Positions 6,485 to 13,991 of a DNA stretch of 64,000 nucleotides are shown here, in pieces. The notes below the pieces were generated by a model. That model was not told the origin of the DNA. It searched no databases and was given only the letters and a program-made list of their open reading frames with translations. The stretch is from an archaeon (lineage in GTDB: Archaea > Nanobdellota > Nanobdellia > Pacearchaeales > GW2011-AR1). The position numbers were made by a program, and so were the translations under genes. How positions within the stretch are numbered: the first letter of the stretch is position 1; each line of letters starts with the position of its first letter. Location of the stretch: NCBI GenBank assembly GCA_018653485.1, contig JABHZE010000003.1, positions 2,539 through 66,538 on the forward strand, given 5' to 3'.

Positions 6485-7108
6485 TTATACATATACTTCT
6501 CTTTTAGGAAATTCAGGATAATTTAGAACTAATAAATCATTTTCGAGATGAGCGTAAGCTCTTTTGTAATAACTCTTGTTCTCAAAATCTGCTCTTGTGT
6601 AATAGAAATTTATTTTGCCATATTTTGCATCATAGTATCCATGTTCTACAACTTCATCATTAATAACATGGCTAAATAAAAAACCATCTCTAAAATATAA
6701 TACGTTTTCTTCATTGTTACAAATATCATTAGGTGCAAAATCAATATTTGTTGAGACTAAATGCCTGGGCCTATTTTTTATCTGCATTGTGCTTGTTACA
6801 GGAGTTTTTATTGTTGGTGCCTTAATAGTTATTTCTTGAGTAGTTGAATCAGATGGTGTAGATGAAGGTGTTGATGAAGGAGTTTGTGTTCCTGATGGGC
6901 CTGATGTTGCGCCGGTTCTAGAATCTATTGAAGGCACTTCTTGTGGTTCTGTAGGGGATAAAGAAGTGGCAGTGCCTGCTAAGTCTTCATCTGCAAGAGT
7001 TTCTTGTTGAGATATTTTTGTTGTGATGTTTATTGCTAATAATGAGGCTATAACTAGAATGAATAATACTGTTATGGATATTAGTGTTATTTTTGTTGTT
7101 TTTCTCAT
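6485..7108 (-). CDS. Membrane-anchored hypothetical protein with Ser/Thr/Pro linker
   Basis: N-terminal TM, TPSS repeats, globular C-terminus. Confidence 0.6.
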   Translation of the reverse strand: MRKTTKITLISITVLFILVIASLLAINITTKISQQETLADEDLAGTATSLSPTEPQEVPSIDSRTGATSGPSGTQTPSSTPSSTPSDSTTQEITIKAPTIKTPVTSTMQIKNRPRHLVSTNIDFAPNDICNNEENVLYFRDGFLFSHVINDEVVEHGYYDAKYGKINFYYTRADFENKSYYKRAYAHLENDLLVLNYPEFPKREVYV

Positions 7109-7156: not shown

Positions 7157-9352
7157 TTATTGTTGCCGGGTATTATATCTTTCTGGGTTTTGTAAAATAT
7201 TATTTATTCCTGATTGGATTTCTTCAGCAGTATTTACAGGTGGTTGGCTAAGGGGATTATAGCCTTGTGATTTATGATAATAAATAACCTCTCCATCCTT
7301 AGTTAAAAGATAATTTACTTGAGGTAATGCTCCTCCTCCATAAGTTTCTTTGTAAAGTCTTCCAATCTCTGAAGTTAAATCTAATCTCCCGCCAGGTAAT
7401 TCGGGGATAAGATGATCTATTATTGTTACTTTTAGATTATTTCTATTATTATTGGTTATTGTTGTAAAAACCTGTGCTTGTTTCATTGCTCTGCACGGTC
7501 CGCAAGATGAAGAGGTAAATCTAGTAATTGTTAGATGGTAGTTAGGTTCTGGTTCTGGTTCTACGGGAGGTTCTACTGGAGGTTGTGTAGGTGGTTGTGT
7601 AGGAGGTTCGGGATATGTAGAATCTTCACAAGAAGGGGCAGGCTCAGGTGGAGGGGAGGATAGTGGAGGAATTGGAGTAACTATATCAGGTGATGGTAGG
7701 ATAGGATCATCGCCACAAGTACAAGCATTACATCCTCTCTGAACTGCTTCTATGTCATCCTTATAAGATTTGCCTAGTTGAGATTTGACGTATTCTACCC
7801 ATTCTTTTTCGAAATCTGAAGTGTCTTCTAGGCCAAAGTATTCTTCTAATGCACCATCCCAATCATCTTCTAAACTAGCCTTTTTTGTCATTTCTAAAAT
7901 ATCTCGTTTTGCTCCGCAAGGATCTTTTCCTTGTTTTTTTAGTTCTTCACTTCTTATTTTATATAGATATTCAACCATGCTTGAACATTGAGCATAAAAT
8001 GTTTCAACATTTTCAGGGTAATCGCTCATCTCAAGAATCTCATCAAAAGGGACATGCTCTTGAACAAATAAATCTTTTATAAGCTTTTTAAATCTCCTAC
8101 ATTTTGTTTCTTGATTTTGATTCAAGGTTGATACACCTTCTTCCATACAAGATCCTGCCATCCCAGGGAGCGCTTCCATTTGTTCTCCAAATAAATATGC
8201 AGAAATTATATGTTGAGTTTCATGAGCGATTGTAGACTCTAAAATATCTGAAGGAGTTCCAATTAAATTTCCAGTAGTAGGAGTAACCCCTGTTCTAGAA
8301 ACCTCTCCTCCTGCATGAATTGCATCTATCTCTTTAACTTGAAATTTTACTCTTGGGGATAAAAATCCTGCCATTTGATCTTTACTAGTTATCATCCCAT
8401 ATTGAACTGCATTTACACATAAACTCCATTCCAATGTTAATGCATACTGACAAGCACTAACTGTAGGTTCAGTTGGAGGATTATCTTCATCTATTGTTAC
8501 ATCTACCTGAAAATTAGCAGATCCAAAATAAGTTCCTTGAGCATAGGCCTGACTGCAAGTTGTTTCTATATCTTTGTTTAAATCTTCTTTACTTCCGCAA
8601 ATCTTATCTGTTTTATCTTCGCAAGGATTAGGGGAATCAGGGCATTTACAATCTTCTTTCTCTTTTTTCTTGCATTTCCCATAACCATCACAAAGCCCAT
8701 AGCCCTTGTTACACCCATAACCCTCTTTAGCCTTATCTGCTTGGCAGATTCCGGTGTTCCCAGGCCCAACTTTAAAGTGGAAGGTGTAGGTTTCTGTATC
8801 TGTTCTTAAAACCTCCAAAGGATTATTTTTTACATATTGTATTGTTACCACCATTGTCTGGGTTTTATCATTATTTATTGTCCCTTTAATTGGAATTTCA
8901 ATTTGAGTTACTGGATGATTAACATCAATTGCATCAGAGCCCCCATAAATGAAAGTTATGAAATCATATTCAAAAACCCCCTTAACAAATGGTTCAACAT
9001 CTAGGATTAGAGTAGTGTCTATTAATTGTCCTGCCCCAATGTTTAATGAAAAAGTATTATCGTCTTGAGGAATTAATACTCCCTCTTTAACACACTTCAA
9101 ACAATCCTTACAATTTCCATAACCATAGCCACATTTTTCTCCTATTTCATTCCCTTCTTCTTGAAAAACTGCTTGTTGTATGGAAAACTTAAAAATATCT
9201 AAAAATCTTTCAAAAAGTCCAATAGATGCTAATTCTCCATCTTCTTCTACTTCTTTAACTGATAAAGATGAGATAATAAATAGGAATACTATAACGATTA
9301 ATACTAATATAGTTAGAAATACAACTCTCTTTTTAACATCCCCTTTTCTCAT
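7157..9352 (-). CDS. Membrane-anchored protein: Cys-rich region, zincin (peptidase MA-like) domain, Pro-rich linker, thioredoxin-like domain
   Basis: AHETQH (HExxH) plus downstream EEG; PPTQPP linker; FTSSSCGPCRAM CxxC. Confidence 0.72.
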   Translation of the reverse strand: MRKGDVKKRVVFLTILVLIVIVFLFIISSLSVKEVEEDGELASIGLFERFLDIFKFSIQQAVFQEEGNEIGEKCGYGYGNCKDCLKCVKEGVLIPQDDNTFSLNIGAGQLIDTTLILDVEPFVKGVFEYDFITFIYGGSDAIDVNHPVTQIEIPIKGTINNDKTQTMVVTIQYVKNNPLEVLRTDTETYTFHFKVGPGNTGICQADKAKEGYGCNKGYGLCDGYGKCKKKEKEDCKCPDSPNPCEDKTDKICGSKEDLNKDIETTCSQAYAQGTYFGSANFQVDVTIDEDNPPTEPTVSACQYALTLEWSLCVNAVQYGMITSKDQMAGFLSPRVKFQVKEIDAIHAGGEVSRTGVTPTTGNLIGTPSDILESTIAHETQHIISAYLFGEQMEALPGMAGSCMEEGVSTLNQNQETKCRRFKKLIKDLFVQEHVPFDEILEMSDYPENVETFYAQCSSMVEYLYKIRSEELKKQGKDPCGAKRDILEMTKKASLEDDWDGALEEYFGLEDTSDFEKEWVEYVKSQLGKSYKDDIEAVQRGCNACTCGDDPILPSPDIVTPIPPLSSPPPEPAPSCEDSTYPEPPTQPPTQPPVEPPVEPEPEPNYHLTITRFTSSSCGPCRAMKQAQVFTTITNNNRNNLKVTIIDHLIPELPGGRLDLTSEIGRLYKETYGGGALPQVNYLLTKDGEVIYYHKSQGYNPLSQPPVNTAEEIQSGINNILQNPERYNTRQQ

Positions 9353-9444: not shown

Positions 9445-12309
9445 CTATACCTCGATGCTTAACACCTTAGAGATTCCTTCTTGCATTGATACACCATAAA
9501 TAACATTAGAAGATTCACTAATGATTGAATCATTGTGTGTGATTATTAGATATTGTCCTTTTTTCATGTGCTTTTTTAAAAGATATCCTAGTTTTTCTGA
9601 ATTTCTTTTATCTAATGCTGCATCTATCTCATCAAAGATATAAAAATAATATGGACGATATTCTTGAATTGCGAAAATTAATGATAATGCTACAAGGGTT
9701 TGTTCTCCACCTGATAGTGAAGTTACATCAAACTTTTTTCCTCCTCCAACATTAACTAAGATATCTAATCCTGCATTAAAAATTTCTTTTTTGTCTTGAG
9801 GTTGAATTGAGACAATTCCTTTAGTTGAAAGTTGTGAGAAGTTTCTTGAGAATTGTTCATTAACTGCATCTAATGTCTGAATAAATGCTTTTTTCTTTTT
9901 CTTGTCTATTTGAATAATTATCCTTAAGATTTCATCTTTTTCTTTTTCAAGCATTTCTACTTTATCTTTTATTTTATCATATTCTGCTTTTATTCCTTCA
10001 TAAACCTCTAATGCCCTCATATTTACACTTCCAATTCTTATTAGTGTTGTTTCAGAATTATGTAATTTTTCTTTAAGTTTTTCTATTGGGAGTGAAAGAA
10101 ATTCAACTCCCTTAAATTCAAATAATTCTTCTGTAAGTGTATCTTTTTTTGCAGAAATTTGTGCTTTAGTTATTTTAAAATTATTAGTATCTCCTTCTAA
10201 AACTCTTTTTTCATTTTGATCTCTAAGTAGGCTTGATTCTAATCTTCTAACCCTATCCTGCAATAAATTTTTCTCTTCAAACATTTTTTGATATTTCTTT
10301 TTAAGAACTTCTGCTTGTTCTTCTTTTTTTTCTGTAATTGATTCTTTTTCTTCTAATGAAGCGTTGATAAATTCTAAATTATCAGTGATATCCTCCTTAT
10401 CTCTTGAATTTTGTTTTATTGCAAGTTGAGTTCTATCTAATTCTCTTTGTTTTTGAGTTAATTCAAACCCTAAATCCCGTTCTTCTGTTCTTTGAAGTTC
10501 ATTAACCTCTAATTGAAGTGATTCAAATTGTTCTTCACTTAATTTTGTTTTAGAAATATTATTTTCATAAGTTTTCTTTTTTGCTTCTAAATCTTTAAAT
10601 TCTTTTTCTAAAATAACTAATTGCTCATTATTTCTTTTTAATTGTTCTTTTTTCTCAAATATATTTTGTATTTTAACTAAATCTATATTTCTTATATTTA
10701 TTTCAATAGCTTGTCTTGATATAGCTTCTTTTGTTTTTTCAATATTTTCTCTTGTTTCATCAATTTTTTTATTTGAATTGATTATCATTTCGTTTGCTTT
10801 TTTTATTTTAGAATCTGAATCATCCATTACATGGCCAATATGTTCCTTGGTTATTTGTGTTTGACATAACGGGCAAGTATCTAATTTAGATACATCTGAT
10901 TTAATCTTTTCAGCTTCTATTATTTTTTGTTTTTCAATTGCTTTTATTTTTTCTTTTTCAAGTAGAAGACCTTCAAATGAAGAAACTTTTTCTTTATTGT
11001 CTTCCATTGATTGTTTAAGATTAACTAATGCTTCTCTGTGTTGGTCAAGAGTTTCTTTAATTTTTATTTCTTTTTCAATTTGTTCTAATTGGTTTAATAT
11101 AAAATTAGATTCATTTTTAATTCTCTGGAGTTGTCTTTTTTTATCCTCTAATTGAGTTGTAGTTGAAGAAAGATTTGATTTTATTAGATAATGCTTTCTT
11201 TTTAATTCATTTAATTCATCTAATTTTGCTTTTTTTTCTTCTAGTTCTTTTTTCCTATTATTCCCTTTTTCTTTAGACATTTCTTGAATTTCTTTTTGAT
11301 AATTTTTTGTTGTTTCTTCTAAAGAATGTTTTCTTCTATCTAATTCTACTAAATTATTTTCAAAGTTTTCCTTTCTTGCAATTAAACCTGCTATTTCTTG
11401 TTTAAATTCAGAGATTTCTCTATTTAATGTATCTTGTTCTAAACCAGAAGATTTTTGAATTGTTTCAGAAATTGTGTTTATTTTTTCTTCTAATAATTTT
11501 ATTTCATTAGTTAGTCTAGTTAAATTTAATTCTATTTTAGAAATATCTTTTATTTTAGATTCTATCCTTTGATTATTTTCTTTTAGTTCTTTTTCTCTTG
11601 TTTGTATATTTCTTTGAATAATTGATGCCTTACATCTTTTAACAATAATTTCAAGTTTTTTGAATCTTAATGCTTGTTCTCTTTCATTTTCTAGATTTCT
11701 TAAATAATTTGTTCTTTCTCTTAAAACAGCATTAATTTGTTTTAATTTTTCTTCTGTTCTATCTAATTCTTTTAATGATTTTGTTTTTCTCATTTCATAA
11801 ACTGAGATTCCTGCAACTTCTTCTATTACTTTCCTTCTATCATCTGGAGGATTTTTAACAAACTTTTCAATTTCTCCTTGTAAAACAATATTAAATCCAT
11901 GAGGGTCTATTCCTGCTTGACTTAAAAGTTCTAAAACTTCTTGTCTTGTTCTTGTTTCATCATTTATTTTATATGTACTTTGTCCATTCTTTTTTACTGT
12001 TCTTCTTAATTTTATTTCTTTATTATCTAAAGCAAATGTTTTTTCTTCATTATCTAAAACTATTTCAACATATCCTTGACTTGCTCCTTTGAATTCTTTA
12101 TTTCCTGAAAAAATTAAATGAGAAGCCTTTGCTGCTCTGATACTTTTTATAGATAGTCTTCCTAAAACAAAACATAAGGCATCTGTGATATTAGATTTTC
12201 CAGAACCATTTGGGCCCACAACACAAACTACATTTTTATCAAATGGGACATTTGTTTCTCTTGCAAAACTTTTGAATCCTTTCATTACCAGCTTTTTTAT
12301 GTATGTCAT
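9445..12309 (-). CDS. smc: SMC-family chromosome segregation ATPase (atypical: CPLC zinc-hook motif in place of hinge)
   Basis: GFKSF, GPNGSGKSNITDA Walker A, VLQG Q-loop, LSGGEQ signature, FDEIDAALD Walker B/D-loop, ITH switch; long coiled coils. Confidence 0.9.
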   Translation of the reverse strand: MTYIKKLVMKGFKSFARETNVPFDKNVVCVVGPNGSGKSNITDALCFVLGRLSIKSIRAAKASHLIFSGNKEFKGASQGYVEIVLDNEEKTFALDNKEIKLRRTVKKNGQSTYKINDETRTRQEVLELLSQAGIDPHGFNIVLQGEIEKFVKNPPDDRRKVIEEVAGISVYEMRKTKSLKELDRTEEKLKQINAVLRERTNYLRNLENEREQALRFKKLEIIVKRCKASIIQRNIQTREKELKENNQRIESKIKDISKIELNLTRLTNEIKLLEEKINTISETIQKSSGLEQDTLNREISEFKQEIAGLIARKENFENNLVELDRRKHSLEETTKNYQKEIQEMSKEKGNNRKKELEEKKAKLDELNELKRKHYLIKSNLSSTTTQLEDKKRQLQRIKNESNFILNQLEQIEKEIKIKETLDQHREALVNLKQSMEDNKEKVSSFEGLLLEKEKIKAIEKQKIIEAEKIKSDVSKLDTCPLCQTQITKEHIGHVMDDSDSKIKKANEMIINSNKKIDETRENIEKTKEAISRQAIEINIRNIDLVKIQNIFEKKEQLKRNNEQLVILEKEFKDLEAKKKTYENNISKTKLSEEQFESLQLEVNELQRTEERDLGFELTQKQRELDRTQLAIKQNSRDKEDITDNLEFINASLEEKESITEKKEEQAEVLKKKYQKMFEEKNLLQDRVRRLESSLLRDQNEKRVLEGDTNNFKITKAQISAKKDTLTEELFEFKGVEFLSLPIEKLKEKLHNSETTLIRIGSVNMRALEVYEGIKAEYDKIKDKVEMLEKEKDEILRIIIQIDKKKKKAFIQTLDAVNEQFSRNFSQLSTKGIVSIQPQDKKEIFNAGLDILVNVGGGKKFDVTSLSGGEQTLVALSLIFAIQEYRPYYFYIFDEIDAALDKRNSEKLGYLLKKHMKKGQYLIITHNDSIISESSNVIYGVSMQEGISKVLSIEV

Positions 12310-12455
12310 ATTTGTATTTCTTCTTTTTTAATTAATGATTCTAAGGAAAAGAGGTTTTTAAGTTTTTATTGAGAAGGAAGTAACTTATGATTCTGGGTTT
12401 TAGATATATTCTGATTATAGTTATCTTTTTATATCCTATTTTATATTATTTTTTT

Positions 12456-12881
12456 ATGATTAATAAAGAACTTGAAGAAGCACTTTGTAAAGATGCTAGT
12501 GAAAGAACTGGAATTGATATTAAAGTTGTTAGAAGAATGAGGCAGATAGGTATTGGAGAGGCAATTCAAAGATTTCTTCCAGATGATGTTAAGGTTAGAT
12601 TATTAGAAAAAAGAGATTATGTTTTAAATCCTGAGACTAATAATGATCGTATGATAAATATGGGTTTTGGTCTTTCTAGGATTGGAAATTATAGGTGTGA
12701 TTTTTATGAGAGTAAAGAAGGTATGGAATGGTATGAATCTAGGTGTAAGACTCATAATAGTATGGCGATTATTGCCTTGCATATTGATGCTGATTGTAAG
12801 AGGGAATATGATAAAAGGCAGAAAGGTGAGGCTAGAACTCGGGCTAGATTAAGGCGTCATGGTGCTAGATGGAGTGGGTAG
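12456..12881 (+). CDS. Hypothetical protein
   Basis: ORF with typical codon usage; start placed at MINKE after the AT-rich promoter region. Confidence 0.5.
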   Translation: MINKELEEALCKDASERTGIDIKVVRRMRQIGIGEAIQRFLPDDVKVRLLEKRDYVLNPETNNDRMINMGFGLSRIGNYRCDFYESKEGMEWYESRCKTHNSMAIIALHIDADCKREYDKRQKGEARTRARLRRHGARWSG

Positions 12882-12882
12882 A

Positions 12883-13527
12883 TTACAATAATGTTTGTTG
12901 ATTTGCTTTTTCTTGTTCAGCTATTTTTTTGTATGTAGCCCATGTTTTTCTGAATATTTCTGGATGTTTGTTCCAGTTGTCTTTTATGAATGCTTTTGTG
13001 TTAGGGTCTGCAGGATATCCTGAACCTGTGTTCCCATATTTTTCTTTGAGTTTATCTACTTGGTTTTCTCTTTCTACTTTTGCTAATATTGATGCTGCTG
13101 AACAAACAGGATATATTGCATCTGCTTTGTGTTCTACTATTAGTTTGATTTCCTTGTTGTTAAGGAGATTTCTTAGATATTCTTCAAATTTTGGGGGGTT
13201 TGTGCTTGGGCAGTCTATTATTGCTACATCTGGATTTAATGCATTGATTATTTCTGCTTGTTTATGTGCTTCAAGCCAGTTAAGGTTTAAGTCTGTTGAG
13301 TTTAATGCTGAATCTATTTCTTGAGGTGAGGTTATTATTACTTTGTGTTCAAAGTTTTCTCTTAAGTGTTGGTCTAATTTTAGTCTTTTTGGATGTGGGA
13401 TGAGTTTAGAATCTTTAACTTCTCCTAACATTTCTTCTTTTCCTTCTTCAATCATTACTCCTGCCATAACTAATGGGCCTATTACAGGGCCTCTTCCTGC
13501 TTCATCAATTCCTAGAACTTTTGTCAT
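12883..13527 (-). CDS. rnhB: Ribonuclease HII
   Basis: GIDEAGRGPVIGP, VKDSK, HKAD, SAASILAK, GSGYPADP. Confidence 0.97.
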   Translation of the reverse strand: MTKVLGIDEAGRGPVIGPLVMAGVMIEEGKEEMLGEVKDSKLIPHPKRLKLDQHLRENFEHKVIITSPQEIDSALNSTDLNLNWLEAHKQAEIINALNPDVAIIDCPSTNPPKFEEYLRNLLNNKEIKLIVEHKADAIYPVCSAASILAKVERENQVDKLKEKYGNTGSGYPADPNTKAFIKDNWNKHPEIFRKTWATYKKIAEQEKANQQTLL

Positions 13528-13634
13528 TGTACTTGATTAAATTTAGTTTTGTTTTTATAGTTTATTGTTGTTTTGTGTTGAATATAGTGTTTAATCTTGA
13601 TAATCTTTTTAAAACTAGGGAATTATGTTTAGAT

Positions 13635-13991
13635 ATGAGTTTTTTGGATTTAGAAAGATTGAGTAGAGAAGAGATGGATGAAGAAATAGGTTCTTGTAGA
13701 GAGGTTTTGGAGGGATGTTTAGAGAGTAGTGATTTAATTTGTCTGAATACTAAAAATTGTCGTAGTTATATTGATGATGTTGTTGCTAGTCATTTGGAAA
13801 AAGTGGGAAAAGAAAAATGGTTGGTTAATAATGGTAGTTGGTATCAAACAGGAGGGGTTTCAGAATTAGTTTTAATTAGGTTTGTTCGTGAGGAGAAGGT
13901 TTTTGATAATCCTCATGTTGGGAAATATAAGATTGAGGAAACTTATCTTGAGCATAGTGTTAGAGCGTTTACAGCTCATGGTGTTGAGTGA
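13635..13991 (+). CDS. Hypothetical protein
   Basis: ORF divergent from rnhB; start at MSFLD avoids overlap and follows TTTTTAAA. Confidence 0.5.
   Translation: MSFLDLERLSREEMDEEIGSCREVLEGCLESSDLICLNTKNCRSYIDDVVASHLEKVGKEKWLVNNGSWYQTGGVSELVLIRFVREEKVFDNPHVGKYKIEETYLEHSVRAFTAHGVE

Follow-up and report, generated by a model that had tools for sequence, protein, structure and literature searches.

We analysed a 64,000-nucleotide stretch of archaeal DNA (contig JABHZE010000003.1 of assembly GCA_018653485.1, positions 2,539 to 66,538 of the forward strand; hereafter, the window) from the order Pacearchaeales and found that its smc gene (9445..12309, minus strand) encodes a protein of 954 amino acids (aa), designated P0001, that combines the two ATPase head halves of Smc with a CPLC zinc-hook motif at the apex of its coiled coil and has no hinge. 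The same architecture recurs across the order, and the genome retains ScpA and ScpB. P0001 is probably the Smc of an Smc-ScpAB condensin, in which two chains would be clasped together at the tips of their arms by a single zinc ion bound to four cysteines. It is, in our best reading, a putative natural counterpart of Smc(Zh), a Bacillus subtilis protein engineered to carry a Rad50-type hook (2017, PMC5344682; this and the other papers are cited from the parts of their text available to us). Because the hinge is a defining feature of Smc and P0001 does not have one, we class it as an Smc-derived variant that has no hinge, and do not count it as a standard member of the family.

Architecture of the smc gene product

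The initial annotation had described a 954-aa open reading frame (ORF) with Smc head motifs at each end and CPLC in the middle. All of the quoted motifs are present, with the correction that the gene lies on the minus strand, where the ORF is uninterrupted, the plus strand of the same interval being full of stops. The N-terminal half of the ATPase head (aa 1-167; 11809..12309, minus strand like every feature of the gene), assigned from motifs, Pfam, a PDB match and the AlphaFold2 (AF2) model, carries GFKSF (aa 11-15) and GPNGSGKSNITDALCFVLG (aa 32-50), which opens with the Walker A motif GPNGSGKS (aa 32-39; nucleotides (nt) 12193-12216). The C-terminal half (aa 826-954 plus the stop codon; 9445..9834), assigned from the same four lines of evidence, holds LSGGEQTLVALSLIFAIQ (aa 865-882), beginning with the signature LSGGE (aa 865-869; nt 9703-9717), and the Walker B and D-loop segment FYIFDEIDAALD (aa 889-900; nt 9610-9645), which ends in FDEIDAALD (aa 892-900). 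A database copy of the protein (P0002) was called at 946 aa, 8 aa shorter, and the 954-aa start is the one common to most homologues.

AF2 modelling from an alignment of 28 sequences (A1) placed a long antiparallel coiled-coil arm (aa 168-473 and 488-825) between the head halves, with a mean predicted local distance difference test (pLDDT) value of 73.5 and a predicted template modelling (pTM) score of 0.32, which is low as expected for a rod. The ascending strand (aa 168-473; 10891..11808) consists of helices 168-344, 353-414 and 421-473, with breaks at 345-352 and 415-420. The descending strand (aa 488-825; 9835..10848), located from the alignment and AF2, includes helices 488-587, 592-607 and 614-730, a near-invariant H490, and breaks at 588-591 and 608-613, which in the model pair with the ascending breaks at 415-420 and 345-352, respectively. 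The chain folds back at the apex loop (aa 474-487; 10849..10890), delimited by conservation, profiles and the AF2 and dimer models; pLDDT is 85-93 in the blocks that flank the tip and 74-75 in the loop. Within the loop, DTCPLCQTQI (aa 477-486) includes CPLC at aa 479-482 (nt 10864-10875), matching the positions originally given for it, and this site is the turn of the long coiled coil.

Heads of Smc ancestry

Profile searches placed the heads with Smc. P0001 matched SMC_N in two stretches (Pfam, 187 bits, 4e-55), as well as SMC_prok_B (TIGR02168; 494.5 bits against an equivalog cut-off of 567.35) and SMC_prok_A (TIGR02169; 488.7 bits against 729.4), each of the latter two matches again being split in two and leaving out the hinge portion of the profile. 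The best Rad50 model in NCBIfam reached only 87.8 bits against a cut-off of 700. The best PDB matches were archaeal Smc heads (5xei, 5e-100; 4i99, 1e-77), with Rad50 heads at 4.5e-13, and a Foldseek search with the AF2 model likewise put condensin and Smc entries on top, gaining nothing beyond the sequence matches. Membership of the archaea-specific SMC-related proteins (ASRPs) was considered and rejected, the model NF045487 scoring 103.2 bits, below its cut-off of 300.

A tree of the heads agrees with these scores. It was built from residues 1-200 and 760-954 of P0001 (394 columns) and 68 rows picked by hand across the identity range, comprising 21 of about 130 hook forms, 7 short forms that have no hook and no hinge, 35 of 110 hinge forms and, as outgroup, 5 Rad50 proteins from the same order; neither fragments nor proteins with inteins were included, and a quick tree agrees with the careful IQ-TREE run. 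A branch of 10 changes per column, supported at 100/100, separates Smc from Rad50, and 20 hook forms together with the 7 short forms make up a single clade, also at 100/100, among the hinge-bearing Smc of the same class. The heads are thus of Smc and not Rad50 ancestry by profile scores, PDB matches and phylogeny alike, as had been proposed from their motifs.

Some hook-bearing smc genes of 1474-1528 aa contain an intein with a LAGLIDADG homing endonuclease (PF14528, PF14890), inserted near residue 37-38 in the Walker A region (P0011, P0026, P0035, P0054, P0062, P0064, P0067, P0086, P0099 and P0103). Several hinge-bearing relatives of about 1700 aa look likewise intein-bearing.

Loss of the hinge across the order

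The absence of a hinge, first noted from the lack of a glycine-rich motif, was borne out at every level searched. No SMC_hinge domain (PF06470) was detected in P0001 with Pfam at E<=1, in a six-frame scan of the whole 930-kb genome (6 contigs, 85.55% complete), or in P0001 with a custom hinge hidden Markov model (HMM) built from 10 canonical relatives. Extending the search to the order, we found SMC_hinge in 0 of 201 genomes, including 0 of 76 of high quality. A sample of the phylum, all of it from the same class, had the domain in 359 of 401 genomes (353 of 395 when 6 genomes flagged as unpublished, all with a hinge, are set aside), and the order's own families in that sample had it in 0 of 29, with about 12 genomes from other orders also giving no match; the hinge-bearing ORFs of the sister groups are about 1165 aa long. 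The hinge has therefore been lost across the whole order. A homologue of P0001 was present in all 41 relatives searched, and the homologues are named by their sources as Candidatus Pacearchaeota, Nanoarchaeota or Nanoarchaeia.

Alignment with MAFFT located the exchange. Residue 466 of P0001 maps to canonical residue 485 and residue 491 to 665, which indicates that about 180 aa of hinge were swapped for about 25 aa while the arms were otherwise kept. Full-length proteins have a median of 954 aa for hook forms (n = 97), 1154.5 aa for hinge forms (n = 56) and 793 aa for forms with neither (n = 12). The arms of P0001 are about 20-35 aa per strand shorter than canonical arms, so the initial annotation's picture of a chimeric, minimal chromosome organizer holds as regards Smc heads joined to a hook, while 'minimal' overstates the difference. 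Separately, some Smc proteins of about 800-870 aa keep the hinge (106-210 bits to the local HMM; P0183, P0187, P0192, P0196, P0202, P0216, P0218, P0223, P0227 and P0231); their arms must accordingly be far shorter than those of the usual Smc of about 1150 aa.

These distributions also bear on whether the hinge-less architecture could be an artefact of assembly or gene calling, such as a collapsed or chimeric contig at the apex. That the genome is an incomplete, metagenome-style assembly in 6 contigs speaks for such an error, but the ORF is uninterrupted, the same architecture is found in 97 full-length proteins from many sources and in every one of the 41 relatives, and none of the 201 genomes of the order gave a hinge match. 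Misassembly at the apex is excluded because the architecture recurs in well over 100 independently assembled proteins, and an artefact of any kind has practically no chance of being the explanation.

Conservation of the apex motif

We next considered how widely the CPxC motif is shared. An apex-query search, which is motif-biased, recovered one copy of CP[LV]C at the equivalent place in all 92 sequences (the query and 91 homologues). A search with the whole protein agrees: among the best 150 representatives, 34 had CPxC without a hinge, 100 had a hinge without a mid-arm CPxC, and 16 had neither, 6 of these 16 being fragments of <540 aa. The variable position in the 34 hook forms is L, F, T, V, M, I or K. 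One CPxC is present at the apex of each examined homologue of about 950 aa that has no hinge, and the motif is conserved throughout the homologues of this length class.

Conservation extends beyond the cysteines. All 131 apex fragments, of which 127 are unique, have both cysteines and the proline (100% each). Of the flanking positions, -3 is L in 81%, -2 is D in 92%, +8 is T in 90%, +10 is E in 79% and +11 is H in 94%. In the 28-sequence alignment, very few columns of the arm are invariant, and C479, P480 and C482 belong to them. Judged from the sequences, the apex motif is far beyond chance.

Resemblance to Rad50 hooks

The flanking residues recur in similar form in the Rad50 hooks of the same order (n = 5): four have D or N at -2, four have S or T at +8, and all five have E at +10 and H or Y at +11. 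Rad50_zn_hook (PF04423) was the top Pfam match for 7 of 8 apex fragments of 104 aa, of which two passed the cut-off of 24.3 bits (L025, 24.4 bits; L028, 25.5 bits), and the apex of P0001 is the best match to this profile in its whole genome. Comparing profiles directly with hhalign, we aligned the 131 Smc apexes to the 5 Rad50 apexes of the order over 80 columns with a probability of 99.2% (E 2.4e-19), while 8 controls in which one partner was shifted by 90 or 120 residues along the arm gave probabilities of at most 2.4% (E >=0.019); both input sets were motif-anchored and ungapped.

On the strength of this 80-column similarity, a rad50 gene is the most likely source of the hook sequence, with convergence towards a short motif as a less favoured possibility. 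A more elaborate proposal holds that the hook was captured from the lineage's own rad50 and that the near-identical hooks form mixed Smc-Rad50 zinc pairs, which would couple condensin to double-strand-break repair; we consider this quite unlikely.

A predicted dimer at the apex

We modelled two copies of aa 425-535 with Zn in three runs, alongside three controls. The interface score (ipSAE) had a median of 0.67 over the three runs and was 0.00 for the best control; among proteins of solved structure, 20 of 30 pairs and 1 of 23 single chains attained the mark used for this score. Agreement between the runs extended to at least 97% of contacts, and partner pLDDT was at least 88. The modelled interface comprises residues 479-487, 450-462, 469 and 490-497, with inter-chain contacts C479-C479, C482-C479 and C482-C482, and the N-terminal helices pair residue 458 with 458, giving a side-by-side rod. 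Two chains with Zn thus pass the test, with their cysteines modelled in contact at the apex.

The same residues could be read differently, with CPxC and the conserved histidine at +11 forming an intramolecular zinc site that caps or stiffens the tip of the hairpin, and with any dimerization left to contacts between arms, between heads or through ScpA. Such a site would fit a C-x2-C-x7-H(-x2-H) pattern, H490 being found in 94% and a second histidine at +14 in 32% of the 127 unique apexes, and the existence of short, hook-less forms in the clade implies that a tip-to-tip zinc bridge is not obligatory there. However, the genuine Rad50 hooks of the order have H or Y at +11 as well, which makes this residue part of the Rad50 hook signature and not the mark of a new set of ligands. 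The second histidine is not conserved, distant members of the family are without both, and the dimer model sets C479 and C482 against the same residues of the partner with low expected error. We therefore view an intramolecular cap as unlikely.

ScpA, ScpB and a separate Mre11-Rad50

Both condensin partners are encoded in the genome, on contig 3: ScpA (406 aa; L032:2572-3792, plus strand; PF02616, 53.9 bits) and ScpB (224 aa; PF04079, 113.8 bits), each above its cut-off. The ScpA domain spans only aa 87-306 of the 406-aa protein, which has extra sequence at both the N and C termini, and the ScpA ORFs of relatives range from 238 to 433 aa. Of the 61 genomes of the order that are at least 85% complete, 59 have ScpA and 60 have ScpB; in the high-quality set, each protein is present in 41 of 42. 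Contig 5 carries an operon of overlapping mre11 (394 aa) and rad50 (682 aa; P0093, with CPTC at residue 350). P0001 is the sole Smc-class gene product of the genome, the remaining SMC_N matches being Rad50 and ATP-binding cassette (ABC) transporters. It had been pointed out that no mre11, scpA or scpB adjoins smc in the window, which is true; the genome-wide search places scpA and scpB on contig 3 without linkage to smc, and mre11 on a contig other than that of smc.

The presence of ScpA and ScpB together with a separate mre11-rad50 operon argues that P0001 is the cell's condensin Smc and not a stand-alone organizer or a replacement for Rad50. The repair role is covered by that operon, and for the same reason we rejected the reading of P0001 as the genome's Rad50. 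A broader version of the idea is that P0001 is an SMC-like repair or tethering factor akin to Rad50, ClsN or another ASRP, its Smc-like heads reflecting ancestry only. The natural zinc hooks known in the superfamily are indeed all in SMC-related proteins and none in Smc proper, the bearers being Rad50/SbcC and the ASRPs ClsN and Sph (PMC9389158), and P0001 falls below the Smc equivalog cut-offs. Yet the genome has no other Smc-class gene, the order has kept ScpA and ScpB almost universally though it has no hinge-bearing Smc for them to serve, repair has its own mre11-rad50 operon, and both the ASRP score of 103 bits (cut-off 300) and the position of the heads inside Smc in the tree point away from such a factor. 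A non-condensin role is accordingly very unlikely.

Under the favoured reading of P0001 as a hook-clasped condensin Smc, an ancestor of this DPANN order would have had its hinge of about 180 aa replaced by a Rad50-type zinc hook of about 25 aa. Two Smc chains would be joined permanently at their arm tips, with C479 and C482 of each chain holding one Zn2+ between them, and the adjacent coiled coils would run alongside each other to form a rod. The two heads would be bridged by ScpA, to which ScpB would bind, and the heads would use ATP binding and hydrolysis to entrap DNA or extrude loops in the manner of other Smc-ScpAB complexes, all remaining features working like those of canonical Smc. For P0001 itself, we infer zinc binding, homodimerization, interaction with ScpAB and condensin function from the evidence above.

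Several results weigh against this reading. P0001 misses both Smc equivalog cut-offs, and in the head tree the place of the hook clade among hinge-bearing Smc has support of only 29-61%. The window's own hook scores 17.9 bits to Rad50_zn_hook, under the Pfam cut-off of 24.3, and one apex fragment (L027) reaches only 10.1 bits; a phmmer search with the 104-aa apex against PDB sequences returned two matches at chance level and no Rad50 hook. The dimer score may reflect likeness to solved Rad50 hooks held in the memory of the model, and its calibration had neither a riding ligand nor a custom alignment. The scpA and scpB genes are unlinked to smc, and the partnership is read from co-occurrence alone. 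Finally, a zinc hook is not indispensable in the clade, since the clade includes short sublineages with neither hook nor hinge.

Hook-less and divergent relatives

These short Smc homologues, of about 780-805 aa and with neither a hinge nor CxxC, were found in five genomes of families f5-f7 (L018-L022 in G028, G035, G040, G030 and G029, respectively) and among database proteins (P0114, P0116, P0117 and P0119). They are scattered inside the hook clade, where, given the starred branches of the tree, the 'short' label has to change 4 times. P0116 has 126 aa in place of the 303-aa distal arm and hook of its relative P0111, and its tip is predicted by AF2 to be entirely helical (helices 358-388 and 392-424; mean pLDDT 79.9).

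One hook-bearing protein stands well apart from the rest. L024 (a 993-aa ORF, G039:C20, also designated P0243) has no hinge, is 28% identical to P0001 and scores 496 bits to SMC_prok_A. Its only relative in a set of 5.8 billion proteins is P0244, named Candidatus Diapherotrites by its source, and the hook motif of the pair is CPVC or CPIC at aa 486. Given that its contig is only 5.5 kb long and that this sole relative bears the name Diapherotrites, L024 may be mis-binned in G039. Joining it to the hook clade was disfavoured in an approximately unbiased (AU) test (p-AU 0.023; log-likelihood difference 23), for a group chosen post hoc and a branch as long as 1.39. These results only suggest that the L024 lineage made an independent hinge-to-hook swap and, with it, that the swap occurred more than once in DPANN archaea.

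Relation to known systems

P0001 shares with prokaryotic Smc (Pyrococcus, B. subtilis) both head halves, a long antiparallel coiled coil with paired helix breaks, and ScpA and ScpB in the genome. It differs in having a CPxC loop of about 25 aa where those proteins have the hinge, and in its length of 954 aa against a median of 1154.5. Rad50/SbcC resembles it at the other end of the molecule, with CPxC at the coiled-coil apex, conserved flanks, a profile match and a predicted symmetric dimer of cysteine pairs, but has different heads; moreover, P0001 has no adjacent mre11, and its arms are about twice as long as those of the genome's own 682-aa Rad50. The ASRPs (ClsN or coalescin, and Sph1/2; Yoshinaga et al. 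2022, PMC9389158) are likewise archaeal and have a zinc hook in the hinge's place, but their profile spans 593 positions compared with the 954 aa of P0001, which scores 103.2 bits to it versus about 490 to the Smc models.

The closest parallel is engineered. B. subtilis Smc(Zh) also joins Smc heads and arms at the tip by a Rad50-type hook, and cells carrying it are reported to grow normally on rich medium with near-normal arm-arm association (PMC5344682). Smc(Zh) is a bacterial laboratory chimera, whereas P0001 is natural, archaeal and order-wide, with arms that evolved together with the hook. The opposite swap, of an SMC hinge into Rad50, has been engineered in fission yeast, and the available text reports that such chimeras work and that hook and hinge are interchangeable dimerization modules (Tatebe et al. 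2020, PMC6969161). Because both kinds of chimera function, a hook-for-hinge design is known to be viable.

A search of the full-text literature, with subscription journals and supplements outside its scope, brought up no account of a natural Smc proper that carries a zinc hook. In the part available to us of a review on Crenarchaea, the typical SMC is hinge-bearing and Nanoarchaeota appear only in a list of phyla. The supplementary sequence lists of the ASRP paper (PMC9389158) could include such proteins.

Whether the SMC hinge serves only as a dimerization clasp, or also as a DNA-binding site or gate for loading and loop extrusion, is a long-standing question. Laboratory chimeras suggested, in the accessible text, that the dimerization domain's fold is irrelevant (PMC5344682, PMC6969161). 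Here, the same substitution appears to have been made by evolution in a whole archaeal order that kept ScpA and ScpB, which implies that hinge-specific activities would not be essential for Smc-ScpAB, at least in these tiny genomes. The compact 954-aa Smc and its relatives of about 790 aa, which carry no hook and no hinge, are well suited to structural and single-molecule work, and the hook clade offers a test case for modular exchange between Smc and Rad50.

Neighbouring genes in the window

The smc gene adjoins one for RNase HII (12883-13527, minus strand). Four further ORFs flank it, of 731 aa (7157-9352, minus), 207 aa (6485-7108, minus), 164 aa (12387-12881, plus) and 172 aa (13473-13991, plus), none of which has a family match in Pfam or NCBIfam; the 731-aa ORF shares the strand of smc and begins 93 nt downstream of it. 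A sigma-70 promoter and terminator scan, based on a model unsuited to an archaeon, stayed at the level of shuffled sequence (24 sites versus a mean of 21). Farther out, the window encodes a B12-binding radical S-adenosylmethionine (SAM) enzyme and a major facilitator superfamily (MFS) transporter.

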